A DNA stretch of 64,000 bases, from positions 4,749 to 68,748 of the forward strand of contig CAZOKN010000004.1 in the NCBI GenBank assembly GCA_964580525.1, given 5' to 3'. A program made the translations under genes and the position numbers. The notes under the pieces are model-generated. The model was not told where the DNA came from. It was given only the letters and a program-made list of their open reading frames with translations, and did no database searches. Positions 46,806 through 59,855 of the stretch are shown one piece after another; the first letter of the stretch is position 1, and each line of letters opens with the position of its first letter. The DNA comes from an uncultured Rickettsiaceae bacterium (GTDB taxonomy: Bacteria; Pseudomonadota; Alphaproteobacteria; Rickettsiales; UBA6187).

Positions 46806-47378
46806 ATGTCTAAAGATGATAATTCTCCAGTTCAGGTTTCTAAACAGAATGTTTTGGATGAAGCTTGGAAGGTGGGAGCTCCTCTGAGAAAAAATTGGGG
46901 AATTGGTGGACAGGAGCGTTCTCGGGAGCAAACAGCAATTGAGGATAGCAAAAAAGTAATACATAGTTTCTGTACTCAGCTTAATTCTCTTGATAAACAG
47001 GCCTTGGATGAGGTTTTTGTCGTGTATCGAGTGTTATCTGCTAACGAACAAGAGTCTAAAGAAACTACTCTATCTGATGATCGTCTGAGCAAATTAAATC
47101 TTGTTACATCCGTTCCTGAAGATGAAGCAAATATAAGACTTGATAAAATACGGGATGGTAGAGCGCAGTTTTTAGAAGCTTGTAAAAATCTTCCTGCCGA
47201 AGAAAGGGAAGCATTGATCTTGTTCTTTTCGCAGATTTCTTCTCAAAAACCTGAGAAAGCTCTGAATTTAATGAATTCTATAGGAATTAAGATAGAAGAA
47301 AATGATGTGAAATTGGCAAGTGAGTTGGGAGCAAAAATAGATCAAGATAAGGATAAATCTAAAAAAGAGTTTTTTTAA
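46806..47378 (+). CDS. hypothetical protein, tandem paralog 1
   Basis: 190 aa with no family I recognise. It shares a ~100-aa module with the next gene (V[YF]xVLS .. [SN]VPE[DN] .. LIxF .. AL..[NY]S[IL]GIK). Confidence 0.55.
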   Translation: MSKDDNSPVQVSKQNVLDEAWKVGAPLRKNWGIGGQERSREQTAIEDSKKVIHSFCTQLNSLDKQALDEVFVVYRVLSANEQESKETTLSDDRLSKLNLVTSVPEDEANIRLDKIRDGRAQFLEACKNLPAEEREALILFFSQISSQKPEKALNLMNSIGIKIEENDVKLASELGAKIDQDKDKSKKEFF

Positions 47379-47414
47379 AAGTCTTTAACAGGTTTTGCGT
47401 CTTATTCTGATGAT

Positions 47415-57484: not shown

Positions 57485-59855
57485 AATTTCTTCAGTTTTT
57501 GTTTTTAAAGCTTTGGGCTTTTTGTGCTTAATGGCTTTGTTATCTGTTGTTCCTGTGCGTGAAGTAGTAGCTGGAGATTTTTTGTGTAATGGCAAAAAGG
57601 TTAGCACAAGCGATATTAAAACATGTGTTACTTTTGCTGAGTGTGCTGTTTGTGAGGCGACTGATACAACTTGGTCATCACCAAAAATTGGCATTGCATA
57701 TAATCAAGTGACAGGTGGAGATAAGTACAAAGAAGTTGCAGATGGCGAGTGTGAATGGATGGGCGGTGCAGGACGTCCGTTTGCTGTGAGATTTTGTGCG
57801 CGTAAGGCACAGCCTGGTGAAAATGGTAATACTTCTACAGACAAAGTTATGCTGTGTGGTTACGAAGACTGGTTAGATGGCACTGATATTTCCGCTTTTT
57901 CAAGCCCTAATCATAAAGGATCTAAGAACATGGTTGTGCAGAATGATCTAGGGTGTGTAGATCTGCCAATTGCCAAAGGTCCACCACAGTTTAAAAATGA
58001 TGCCTGGAAAATTTCTTATTTGCCTAATCCTGAAATAAAAATGGGTGTTCCTTCTACATTCGTGGATCCTGAGGTTGATCTTAATATTTGTGAGGATGCT
58101 AATGCGAATGTTGCTAGATGTGTTCCAGGACAAAATTCAGGCTACGCTAATGGTATAACTTTAAAAGAAACTTTGATATTTAAGCCTGCTGCGACTAATT
58201 CATTCGTGGTTTCAAAAACAGCTGGTGATGGTAGAGTTTTTGAAGCTAGAATTACAACGTCTAGGCCAGATAAAATATGTATTTATAAAACACAAGAGCC
58301 TGATGGCACAGTTGTTGAAACGCTACAAGGTTGTGTTTCAAGGCCTGGCTATATGCCAGCACCTACTGTTTCTGTAGGAAATTCGACTACAAATTTACCA
58401 AAAATCACTGCAGCTATGGCTGGTGAAACCAAAACTATAGAAATGTGGGTGAACCCAAATGATTATGACACTAATTCAGCAGCTGCGGTTCCGCATGAAT
58501 GTGATTATTTGAACCAGATAGAATTCTGTGCATACAGACCTTGTTCTGTTACTAAATCTGATGGAACTTGCGCTACATGGAGCGATAAGATGTGTTTGAG
58601 TGGTTATGAAACAGCTCCTTTGGTTGTTGTTGGAACCGCTACTGATACAGCAATTCCTGTGGGGCAAAATCCTCCGGGAAATGTTAGTAAGACTGCAAAT
58701 ACGTCTTTTGTGAATAATAGTGCTTTTAATGAAGTTAATGCTAATGGTGCGCTTTATAGACCTAGTATGACTTTGAAGAAGACAGTTAGTGTTTATAATC
58801 CTCCTTTGTGCTATCAGAAAGATACTAAAACTGGGGATTGTTTGAATTATGAGAGCGATAGTACGGCACTTAATTTGATTGTTAGGGATTTTGGTGTTTG
58901 CTGTACTGATTCTACTTGTTCTGGCATACCTAAGCCTTATACGGATAGTAACGGCAAGTGTTTACAATATGTAAGAAACACACCTATTACAAACGGTGCG
59001 CATTATGATCCGTATAAAATTGATAGCACTATTAGCAGCACAACAAAACTTCCTCTTCAGACAGCCCGCCCTTTGAGCGGAGAAGAAATGGGTTTGTGTG
59101 TATCTATACCGCAAATTTGGATACAGGATAAGCCTGGTAATTATACTTATGTGGCACCTTCAGGTTGTTCAACTGCTACTGTTGAGCTTTGGGGTGGCGG
59201 TGGTGGTGGAAGAAATGGTAGTTCATCTAACGATGATTGGTCAGGTGGTGCTGGTGGTTATGTTAAAGCGAGCGTTCCGGTTACGGCAGGATCTTCCTAT
59301 TCAGTTATTGTAGGAGTAGGTGGTGTACCATTTGGGGGAGGCGGTATTTCGAGCTTTGCGAGTCAATCTGAAGTGAAAGTTTTGGCCAATAGTGGTATGG
59401 CACAGATTGGTGGAAATAGCTTCTGTGCTAATGGTGCTACGTGTATTACACAGAAAAAAGGAAATGATGGGACTAATAACGATTGCGGTTTGATGGCTGG
59501 TGCTGGAGCATGGGATCCTGATCAGGGTGCTTATACACAATGGAAAGAACAGAATGTTACAGGTACGTTTTATACTTTCACGCATGCTGGTGGTGTATGG
59601 ACAAAGTTATCTTCATCTTCCACGCGTACTGGGCCTAGTGGAGTTTGGCAGTGCGATGATTCTGACGACTATGATTCACACGACTTACACATAGCTGATT
59701 TAGGCAATGCCAAGAAGAATAACGTTGATTCTAACTTCTATTATCCTTCTATGGCTGGAGTTGGTGGTTGCTCGTCTGACAAGTGCAGTAGCAATAACTA
59801 TAATGGAAATGTTGGTCCTGGCGGTCCTGGAAAAGCAAGAATAACCTGCAATTAG
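57477..59855 (+). CDS. large exported Cys-rich protein with a C-terminal glycine-rich module
   Basis: 792 aa. The ATG lies inside the last codons of virB4 (8-nt overlap). It has an N-terminal hydrophobic signal, about 32 Cys in the mature part (manual count), and C-terminal NYTYVAPSGCSTATVELWGGGGGGRNG..WSGGAGGYVKASVPVTAGSSYSVIVGVGG. Confidence 0.7.
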   Translation: MPKISSVFVFKALGFLCLMALLSVVPVREVVAGDFLCNGKKVSTSDIKTCVTFAECAVCEATDTTWSSPKIGIAYNQVTGGDKYKEVADGECEWMGGAGRPFAVRFCARKAQPGENGNTSTDKVMLCGYEDWLDGTDISAFSSPNHKGSKNMVVQNDLGCVDLPIAKGPPQFKNDAWKISYLPNPEIKMGVPSTFVDPEVDLNICEDANANVARCVPGQNSGYANGITLKETLIFKPAATNSFVVSKTAGDGRVFEARITTSRPDKICIYKTQEPDGTVVETLQGCVSRPGYMPAPTVSVGNSTTNLPKITAAMAGETKTIEMWVNPNDYDTNSAAAVPHECDYLNQIEFCAYRPCSVTKSDGTCATWSDKMCLSGYETAPLVVVGTATDTAIPVGQNPPGNVSKTANTSFVNNSAFNEVNANGALYRPSMTLKKTVSVYNPPLCYQKDTKTGDCLNYESDSTALNLIVRDFGVCCTDSTCSGIPKPYTDSNGKCLQYVRNTPITNGAHYDPYKIDSTISSTTKLPLQTARPLSGEEMGLCVSIPQIWIQDKPGNYTYVAPSGCSTATVELWGGGGGGRNGSSSNDDWSGGAGGYVKASVPVTAGSSYSVIVGVGGVPFGGGGISSFASQSEVKVLANSGMAQIGGNSFCANGATCITQKKGNDGTNNDCGLMAGAGAWDPDQGAYTQWKEQNVTGTFYTFTHAGGVWTKLSSSSTRTGPSGVWQCDDSDDYDSHDLHIADLGNAKKNNVDSNFYYPSMAGVGGCSSDKCSSNNYNGNVGPGGPGKARITCN

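Follow-up and report, generated by a model that had tools for sequence, protein, structure and literature searches.

The 64-kb stretch of DNA analysed here, referred to as the window, belongs to an uncultured Rickettsiaceae bacterium. Between comM/yifB and the gene of a tripartite ATP-independent periplasmic (TRAP) solute-binding protein (DctP) it carries eleven consecutive open reading frames (ORFs), named b1 to b11, that fill positions 46806-59855 (Table 1). This layout had been correctly described in an earlier, sequence-only reading, which took the eleven genes for one old, lineage-specific accessory locus. The reading preferred here, to which a probability of about 0.6 is given, is that the region is ordinary, vertically inherited chromosome composed of three unrelated pieces, with an islet of the type IV secretion system (T4SS) called rvh, in which a VirB4 ATPase gene is followed by b11, coding for a putative surface or pilus adhesin. 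The first piece (55.1-59.9 kb) would be this islet of the scattered rvh T4SS, with VirB4 translationally coupled to b11. The second (49.0-54.9 kb, b4-b9) would hold clade-conserved envelope and regulatory genes coding for two lipoproteins, a glycine-rich protein, a dCache kinase and a probable haem-oxygenase-like enzyme, together with a truncated RodZ-like gene. The third (46.8-48.9 kb, b1-b3) would consist of young orphan genes that abut b4 at an apparent inversion breakpoint.

Genes of the region and their annotation

The ORFs were scanned for Pfam, NCBIfam, PHROGs, PADLOC and Rfam families. A Pfam or NCBIfam family above threshold is found in only four of the eleven: the kinase, the tetratricopeptide repeat (TPR) lipoprotein, VirB4 and b11. 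The sequence-only reading had named the first three and missed the fourth, whose carboxyl-terminal region (residues 553-790) matches Gly_rich_2 (PF21722) with 42.8 bits for a cut-off of 24.3. PADLOC identifies no defence-system family in the block beyond generic TPR and kinase matches, and Rfam has no match there. Outside the block Pfam families are found for 49 of the 52 ORFs scanned, among them thrS, infC, proS, the murC-murB-ddl-ftsQ-ftsA cluster, serA, gmk, a class A penicillin-binding protein (PBP) and frataxin, in agreement with the previous description of these genes as recognisable.

The unusual compositions that had been noticed from the sequence are confirmed by residue counts. Charged residues make up 32-33% of b1 and b2, tyrosine about 12% of b3 and b4, and glycine 20% of b6, while b11 has 33 cysteines (4.2%) and 11% glycine. 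The claim that several proteins are exported is equally sound: signal peptides in b3 and b11 and lipoboxes in b4 and b5 are readable from the translations, as is an amino-terminal anchor in b9. The starts on record in the protein collection (NCBI-sourced) are 55091 for VirB4, 48577 for b3 and 50926 for b6. No full-length relative at 90% identity is present in that collection for any of the window proteins looked up; this includes housekeeping proteins, and singleton status is therefore uninformative on lineage specificity. Promoter and terminator scans yield the same counts as shuffled sequences and thus carry no information on operons.

Table 1. Features of the region and its flanks (window coordinates; aa, amino acids)
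Feature	Coordinates	Strand	Description
comM/yifB (left flank)	45178-46695	+	Intact, 505 aa; Pfam ChlI, Mg_chelatase and Mg_chelatase_C, full length
b1	46806-47378	+	190 aa; highly charged orphan ORF; paralogue of the amino-terminal part of b2
b2	47415-48317	+	300 aa; charged orphan ORF with an internal hydrophobic segment
b3	48577-48918	+	113 aa; small exported Tyr-rich protein; signal peptide
Intergenic junction b3/b4	48919-49043		Synteny with L010 and L017 stops; putative inversion breakpoint
b4	49044-49487	+	147 aa; Tyr/Pro/Gly-rich lipoprotein, lipobox LSGC
b5	49490-50335	+	281 aa; TPR lipoprotein, lipobox LAAC; Pfam TPR_2, TPR_12 and others
b6	50351-50926	-	191 aa; Gly/Ser-rich; conserved amino-terminal ~100 aa
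b7	51012-52859	-	615 aa; membrane sensor histidine kinase, dCache/HisKA/HATPase_c
b8	52961-54427	+	488 aa; helical; possibly a haem-oxygenase-like di-iron enzyme
b9	54550-54945	+	131 aa; 5'-truncated RodZ-like gene, amino-terminal membrane anchor
b10	55091-57484	+	797 aa; VirB4 ATPase of the rvh T4SS, assigned as RvhB4-II orthologue
b11	57477-59855	+	792 aa; secreted Cys-rich all-beta protein; carboxyl-terminal Gly_rich_2
TRAP solute-binding protein (DctP), YciB/IspA, DUF748, DUF2336	59951-63603	+	Pfam families; collinear with VirB4-b11 in relatives

VirB4 and its constant partner b11

The region was compared with 17 related loci (L001-L017) and with the contigs of P0002 and P0011. L001 is contig_46975 of the metagenome-assembled genome UBA6187, L011 lies on a contig of GCA_001756385.1, and L010 (JGI Ga0456371_00008037) and L017 (GCA_021323415.1, JAJONM010000001.1) are from related metagenomic genomes.

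The product of b10 matches Pfam CagE_TrbE_VirB (PF03135) with 123 bits (cut-off 21). TIGR00929 is matched along almost its entire length (positions 7-791 of 792) with 612.6 bits, just below its cut-off of 643, and NCBIfam PRK13898 with 653 bits, below its cut-off of 1050. The closest genome match of VirB4 is UBA6187, the nearest species representative in the scan of a genome collection, whose VirB4 on contig_46975 is 56% identical. The latter appears as RvhB4-II in Table S1 of Verhoeve et al. 2024, and the window VirB4 is its orthologue. A neighbour-joining tree built for this analysis left RvhB4-I and RvhB4-II undecidable, and the published table was used for the assignment.

UBA6187 belongs to Athabascaceae, one of two families that branch below all classical Rickettsiales (Schon et al. 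2022, PMC9352585). According to that article, members of these lineages probably live freely and have flagella, chemotaxis, type IV pili, complete biosynthetic pathways and an rvh T4SS in which virB4 is duplicated; UBA6187 itself is credited with an rvh T4SS, flagella and chemotaxis. The window (37% GC) encodes a methyl-accepting chemotaxis protein, a prepilin-type protein and several amino-acid biosynthesis genes, which fit this profile. The organism is a basal, Athabascaceae-like member of Rickettsiales. The methyl-accepting chemotaxis protein gene and two small genes for STAS-domain (anti-sigma-antagonist-like) proteins lie at 4272-6150 and 14425-14727, and fit a motile, free-living lifestyle that is unusual among Rickettsiales. 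The protein of 269 aa with a prepilin amino-terminal methylation motif is encoded beside an ORF of 386 aa without Pfam family (9262-11365, minus strand). This gene pair, which is among the few unnamed genes outside the block, may be related to type IV pili or pseudopilins.

The first 8 nt of b11 overlap the end of the VirB4 gene. In all 12 loci in which the linkage was followed (the window, L001, L007, L010, L011/12, L013, L014, L015, L016, L017 and the contigs of P0002 and P0011) a gene of the b11 family starts between -44 and +61 nt from the stop of VirB4. The pairing holds across VirB4 identities of 31-57% and in neighbourhoods that otherwise differ. L013, the P0002 contig and, with two copies, L001 have TrbC/VirB2 genes directly upstream of VirB4; virB2 is likewise directly upstream of virB4-2 in Anaplasmataceae. 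In L001 a tandem duplication (9439-10693) comprises virB2 and the first ~42 codons of virB4, and a VirB4 amino-terminal fragment with 74% identity lies between the two virB2 copies (10001-10126). Note also that L001 codes, at 3044-6943 and upstream of tmk-phoH-virB2-VirB4-b11, for a tyrosine-integrase-like protein, fragments of a second one and several ORFs without obvious function. An integrative element may sit near the UBA6187 islet, not in the window.

Three other loci of basal Rickettsiales have a different arrangement. In L004 (8657-13934) and L005/L006 (9451-13947) the Walker A and B motifs of VirB4 are degenerate, and its gene has one to three virB2 genes upstream and TrbL/VirB6 downstream. 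The position after VirB4 is therefore taken by VirB6 in one VirB4 clade and by a b11-family gene in the other. A role of b11 as a substitute of VirB6 was considered and rejected: b11 is a soluble beta-rich protein and not a polytopic membrane protein.

The b11 family was searched for exhaustively with HMMER among 1.84 billion cluster representatives. The 524 matches obtained are mostly to the glycine-rich carboxyl-terminal domain only; 33 proteins have E < 1e-30, and about 45, with lengths of 745-1325 aa, match the amino-terminal cysteine-rich region. The family is rare (~45 clusters). Gly_rich_2 is its sole Pfam family, present in 25 of 44 members. In PHROGs b11 matches tail-fibre families (phrog_863, category tail, E 4.7e-13). 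An AlphaFold2 (AF2) model built on an alignment of 44 sequences has a mean predicted local distance difference test score (pLDDT) of 84.4 and a predicted template modelling score (pTM) of 0.75. It begins with a signal-peptide helix (7-24), continues as an all-beta region up to residue ~540 and ends in a carboxyl-terminal domain (545-792). Foldseek relates this last domain to the fibre of cyanophage Pam3 (7ypx; E 4.5e-5, probability 1.0), the tail tip of mycobacteriophage Bxb1 (9d93) and the glycine-rich ligand-binding domain of ALK/LTK, as well as to 184 viral models of tail fibres, minor tail proteins and giant-virus collagen-like fibril proteins. The carboxyl terminus of b11 is accordingly modelled with the glycine-rich fold of phage tail-fibre tips. 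Fifteen of the 33 b11 cysteines are invariant among five divergent homologues. The homologues of P0002, L010 and L007 have an insertion of 40-60 hydrophobic, Gly/Ala-rich residues (alignment columns ~230-280), possibly a membrane helix, that is absent from the window b11 and from the UBA6187 protein.

Export, probable disulfide bonding, a domain of the receptor-binding type, the constant presence beside VirB4 and the frequent position behind virB2 are the grounds for proposing b11 as an adhesin that this T4SS carries at the surface or pilus tip, a role that, given the linkage, has about even odds. In the proposed sequence of events b11 would be exported to the periplasm via Sec, be recruited by the VirB4-containing machine and be displayed at the cell surface or pilus tip. 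Its distal domain would there bind the surface of the target cell, filling the role that VirB5 (or TraN) has elsewhere. The rvh system is characterized in the literature as having no VirB5 analogue. A more specific proposal, with less than even odds, is that the b11 family is a new structural component of the rvh T4SS in basal, probably free-living Rickettsiales: the missing equivalent of VirB5, a large disulfide-rich protein with a receptor-binding tip domain in common with phage tail fibres, which would set the cells contacted by the ancestral rickettsial T4SS and be displayed by the RvhB4-II/VirB2 module.

An alternative is that b11 is no part of the machine and is either its substrate (an effector or secreted toxin) or a free-standing surface protein, an adhesin or S-layer-like, that has no more than an operon in common with VirB4. 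Classical T4SS effectors usually have no Sec signal, while pertussis toxin, which is exported by Ptl, has one; the Sec signal peptide of b11 is compatible with a substrate of the latter type. Tail-fibre-like glycine-rich domains are moreover found in many proteins unrelated to T4SS, as the large excess of matches to the carboxyl-terminal domain alone illustrates. Against this stands the tight pairing with VirB4 in every one of the 12 loci, often with overlapping stop and start as is typical of subunits of one complex. The pairing survives deep divergence and changing neighbourhoods, and no enzymatic or toxin domain is found in b11 by Pfam, NCBIfam, PADLOC or the family scan. A substrate or independent surface protein is rather unlikely on this evidence.

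The window VirB4 has a Walker A motif that reads GPFGSGRT, with arginine in place of the lysine of the canonical GxxGxGK[ST]. The codon is AGG at 56441-56443, residue 454 if translation is counted from the TTG at 55079 and residue 450 in the recorded protein of 797 aa. The Walker B motif, IIVLDE, is unaltered. Among the partner-linked orthologues, eight (L001, L007, L010, L011, L013, L014, L015, L017) read GKT and L016 is degenerate. The arginine is either a real step towards the degenerate nucleoside triphosphate (NTP) binding site of classical RvhB4-II or a sequencing error. This substitution, seen in the window only, could also signal that VirB4-b11 is the decaying, non-functional remnant of a conjugative element or of a redundant T4SS copy. 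The missing virB2 that some relatives have upstream, the truncation of the neighbouring RodZ-like gene and the in-frame stop between b1 and b2 would be further signs of decay. However, neither ORF is shortened or interrupted, and conserved residues, among them the 15 invariant cysteines, are preserved. The pair is also kept in at least 12 lineages within housekeeping neighbourhoods. In addition, RvhB4-II of classical Rickettsiales is retained in spite of altered NTP-binding motifs, that of classical Rickettsia being known for mutated NTP-binding residues. Decay of the pair is improbable.

Synteny, composition and the other genes of the block

The gene order in L010 and L017 is murC(-), b4, b5, b6(-), kinase(-), b8, a full-length HTH_25 (RodZ-like) gene, VirB4, b11, DctP, YciB, DUF748 and DUF2336. 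L017 adds purD(-) after DUF2336, and its order from b4 to purD is identical to that of the window. Eight of the eleven block genes (b4-b11) are thus orthologous and in the same order in both relatives, with 27-57% amino-acid identity. The values are 29% and 32% for b4 in L010 and L017, respectively, 49% for b5, 42-55% for b6 (only its amino-terminal ~100 aa, with position and strand kept), 54% for the kinase, 42-45% for b8, 27-32% for b9, 56-57% for VirB4 and 30-31% for b11. The values for the neighbouring TRAP solute-binding protein and DUF2336 are 49-54% and 60-63%.

Part of this organization extends to more distant loci. The P0002 contig has kinase(-), a gene for 602 aa (-), HTH_25, TrbC/VirB2, VirB4, b11, DctP, IspA, DUF748 and DUF2336, and L011/L012 have kinase(-), HTH_25, a Fic gene, VirB4, b11, two inserted genes, DctP and IspA. 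DctP recurs near VirB4-b11 in L015. In L011 (4683-5397, GCA_001756385.1) the insertion between the RodZ-like gene and VirB4 is a DUF4172/Fic gene pair. In L014 (11590-14308) PBP1A(-) and frataxin(+) come after VirB4-b11, whereas in the window these two lie at 40784-43344, just left of kinase-comM; these neighbours have therefore been reshuffled by local rearrangements across the clade. By comparison of these loci three layers of conservation are distinguishable: the kinase, the RodZ-like gene, VirB4 and b11 are deeply conserved, b4, b5, b6 and b8 are seen in the nearest relatives only, and b1-b3 are unique as far as can be tested. The lineage specificity that had been attributed to the entire block would apply only to b1-b3, for which searches of limited sensitivity detect no homologue, and not to b4-b11.

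The two edges of the block behave differently. The right one, between b11 and the TRAP solute-binding protein gene, lies within conserved core synteny, collinear in L010, L017 and the P0002 contig, and is no boundary of a locus as the sequence-only reading had proposed. On the left, comM, b1, b2 and b3 have no counterpart in any of the 17 related loci. That reading had considered that comM might be followed directly by the TRAP solute-binding protein and yciB genes elsewhere; what is found in L010 and L017 is murC(-) to the left of b4 and the collinear VirB4-b11-DctP-YciB to its right. L010 has the complete cluster ftsQ-ddl-murB-SIMPL-murC, all on the minus strand, left of b4; the sequence of the L017 locus begins inside murC. 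The window has murC-SIMPL-murB-ddl-ftsQ on the plus strand at 31.6-36.4 kb, an orientation relative to b4 opposite to that of the two relatives. A single inversion from murC to b3 (about 31.6-48.95 kb) would place murC(-) beside b4 as in L010 and L017, with a candidate partner breakpoint at about 31498-31608, upstream of murC. The junction between comM-b1-b2-b3 and b4 thus looks like a rearrangement (inversion) breakpoint and not like the edge of an insertion beside comM. L010 and L017 are sister taxa, their VirB4 proteins being closer to each other (73% identity) than to that of the window, and for this reason they fit either polarity of the inversion.

No integrase, recombinase, transposase or phage-module family is found in any block ORF by Pfam, NCBIfam, PHROGs or PADLOC, no tRNA or tmRNA gene in the entire window, and among direct or inverted repeats only short ones at chance level, none of which brackets the block. 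These results, as well as the integrity of comM with its three Mg-chelatase/ComM domains, agree with the sequence-only reading. The GC content of the block ORFs (0.32-0.49) lies within the spread of the other genes, its extremes being due to amino-acid bias. Their GC content at third codon positions (GC3) is 0.23-0.35 versus 0.29 +/- 0.03 outside. Correlations of relative synonymous codon usage (RSCU) per gene are 0.37-0.89 in the block and 0.70 +/- 0.14 outside. Pooled, the block correlates with the outside genes at 0.94, compared with 0.96 (minimum 0.90) for random sets of 11 outside genes. Nothing in the composition flags the block as foreign to the window; it has no contrast with the rest, and the earlier conclusion that this is not a recent island stands. 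Among the other features of the window, a 6S RNA gene (SsrS, Rfam RF00013, 49.8 bits) is found at 413-569 (-), directly downstream of zapA (586-963, -).

The same data bear on the view that the complete 13 kb are one old, fixed accessory island of surface and effector genes beside comM that has since ameliorated to the host composition. comM is a known target of island insertion in other bacteria, most block genes have no family name and b1-b3 are missing from all related loci compared; these points speak for such an origin. Yet L010, L017 and the P0002 contig have the right two-thirds of the block in collinear order with what would be its right flank, and b4 adjoins murC, not comM, in L010 and L017. 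The block is not present or absent as a unit, b4-b11 being kept with the right flank in both relatives where only b1-b3 are missing. Integrase, att repeat and tRNA are absent, the composition is native and conservation is graded along the block, which is unexpected from one acquisition event. Synteny largely refutes the island, which is given very little probability.

In the second piece of the preferred subdivision, b7 has matches to HisKA (71.6 bits), HATPase_c (91.6 bits) and, below the cut-off of 45, dCache_1 (27.6 bits). There is no cognate response regulator within the block. Its orthologues in L010 and L017 (54%) and in L011/L012 (44%) have the same position and orientation, and its maintenance beside the RodZ-like gene and VirB4 down to L011 may reflect a regulatory link. 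A paralogous dCache/HisKA kinase is encoded at 43341-45062 (-), 6 kb from b7 (51012-52859, -), so that the two flank comM-b1..b6. Their identity in the catalytic half is 37-39%, and 58 nt of the HisKA box are 83% identical between the two genes (repeat D1).

The b8 protein has a sub-threshold similarity to PF14518 (haem-oxygenase-like iron enzymes; E 0.006), to which its homologue P0008 is independently similar (E 0.0028). The respective scores are 16.8 and 17.9 bits for a cut-off of 28.9, and the P0008 match spans positions 34-173 of the 177 in the profile. Both proteins conserve the motifs EExGxG..AH, AAHEG and EQAHRKDAND. A b8 profile has no significant match among PDB sequences, and its AF2 model, built from a two-sequence alignment, is unusable (pLDDT 39.6). 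On these motifs and sub-threshold scores an enzyme seems more likely than an effector. The b9 product matches the stretch 98-227 in the HTH_25 protein of L010, which has 255 aa, and also aligns to its equivalents in L017 and L011. It is the carboxyl-terminal two-thirds of a RodZ-like (HTH_25) protein (region 54428-54945) that has kept the membrane anchor and the carboxyl-terminal domain and lost HTH_25 in the lineage of the window. No trace of the HTH part is found in b9 or anywhere in the window. L010, L017, L011 and the P0002 contig have the gene in its full length; b9 does not have the combination of HTH_25, membrane span and periplasmic carboxyl-terminal domain that defines RodZ.

In the third piece, b1 and b2 are similar over ~120 aa (BLASTP E 9e-11) and share the reading frame, with a single TAA and 36 nt between them (47376-47414). 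They may have arisen by tandem duplication, or may be a single gene with repeats that a nonsense codon (or an assembly error) divides in two. No Pfam, NCBIfam or PHROG family was found for b1 and b2, nor a PADLOC family for b1, and a word-indexed search with the merged b1 and b2 matched only b2 itself. b3 and b4 share a carboxyl-terminal YPIY(F/L)D motif and 18 of 19 nt of their 3' ends (repeat D8), from which b3 may be a paralogue of b4. Small ORFs were searched for with two concatenated queries (b8+b9+b3+b4 and b1+linker+b2), which found P0008 for b8 and missed the self-entries of b9 and b1; negatives for small ORFs are weak for this reason.

Assessment and comparison with known systems

The analysis shows the gene content, the synteny, the family assignments, the constant linkage of VirB4 and b11 and the fold of the b11 carboxyl terminus, while the location of b11 at the surface or pilus and its function as an adhesin are inferred. 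Several points weigh against the preferred reading of three unrelated pieces with a VirB4-b11 islet. Adjacency alone cannot separate a structural component from a substrate or from a co-regulated surface protein. The amino-terminal ~530 aa of b11 have no match in solved structures (Foldseek, PDB sequence profile) or in Pfam, and b11, at 792 aa and all-beta, differs from VirB5 in size and fold. The Walker A arginine may impair catalysis by the window VirB4. Besides VirB4, no vir gene (virB2, virB3, virB6 or any other) is detectable in the 64 kb, and a complete T4SS is ascribed to this organism by extrapolation from relatives; VirB4 as the only vir gene nevertheless fits a scattered islet, which is a hallmark of rvh systems together with duplicated RvhB4/B8/B9, multicopy RvhB6 and the lack of VirB5. 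Finally, the absence of homologues for b1-b3 comes from word-indexed searches of limited sensitivity, which missed known self-entries (b9 and b1).

As an island the region is of modest significance: it is ordinary native chromosome with a few orphan genes beside conserved ones. The interest lies in b11, which is always found with RvhB4-II, is exported and carries a tail-fibre-type domain. It provides a handle on the role of the rvh T4SS in free-living ancestors of Rickettsiales, before the repurposing for host manipulation proposed by Schon et al. 2022 (PMC9352585). The target bound by b11 would tell whether the ancestral system contacted bacteria, protists or surfaces. In basal lineages an unrelated protein may make up for the VirB5 that rvh systems are reported to lack.

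The closest known system is the rvh T4SS itself (2009; Schon et al. 2022; Verhoeve et al. 2024). The window shares with it an orthologous VirB4 that stands alone among housekeeping genes as rvh islets do, an altered NTP-binding motif in that VirB4, the absence of a VirB5 homologue and, in relatives, virB2 upstream. It differs in the constant b11-family partner downstream of VirB4, which is not mentioned in the passages on rvh T4SS retrieved by keyword look-ups; these look-ups found no paper citing PF21722 either. A further difference concerns the Walker A and B motifs, which are still canonical in VirB4 of most basal relatives but not in RvhB4-II of classical Rickettsiales.

VirB5 proteins are helical, have ~220 aa and are encoded in the gene order B2-(B3)-B4-B5. 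b11 follows virB4 and so occupies the slot of VirB5; like the minor pilins VirB5/TraC/TrbJ, the pilus-tip adhesins of P-type T4SS, it is encoded directly after virB4 (after virB2 in relatives), has a signal peptide and has a plausible role at the pilus tip or as adhesin. It differs from them in being a Cys-rich, all-beta protein of much larger size without sequence or fold similarity, and it has no match to VirB5/TrbJ families in Pfam or NCBIfam. TraN, the outer-membrane stabiliser of mating pairs in F-type conjugation systems, resembles b11 in being large, exported, Cys-rich and encoded with a T4SS, and in a plausible binding to the partner-cell surface. TraN belongs, however, to an F-type and not to a P-type/rvh T4SS and has no glycine-rich tail-fibre domain, and the Pfam scan of b11 gives no TraN family match. 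Phage tail-fibre tips and minor tail domains (PF21722; 7ypx; 9d93) and the ALK/LTK domain match b11 at ~545-792 in sequence and fold. In b11 this domain is fused to a ~530-aa Cys-rich domain without known fold and is encoded in the chromosome beside VirB4, not in a phage tail module.

Islands targeted to comM, as those of AbaR type in Acinetobacter, have in common with the block that it begins directly after comM. They differ in that here comM is intact, integrase or transposase, target-site duplication and compositional contrast are lacking, and the would-be cargo is syntenic with core genes in relatives. What is known at this locus is the RvhB4-II islet of the rvh T4SS, and what is new is b11, an apparently undescribed partner protein strictly linked to VirB4.

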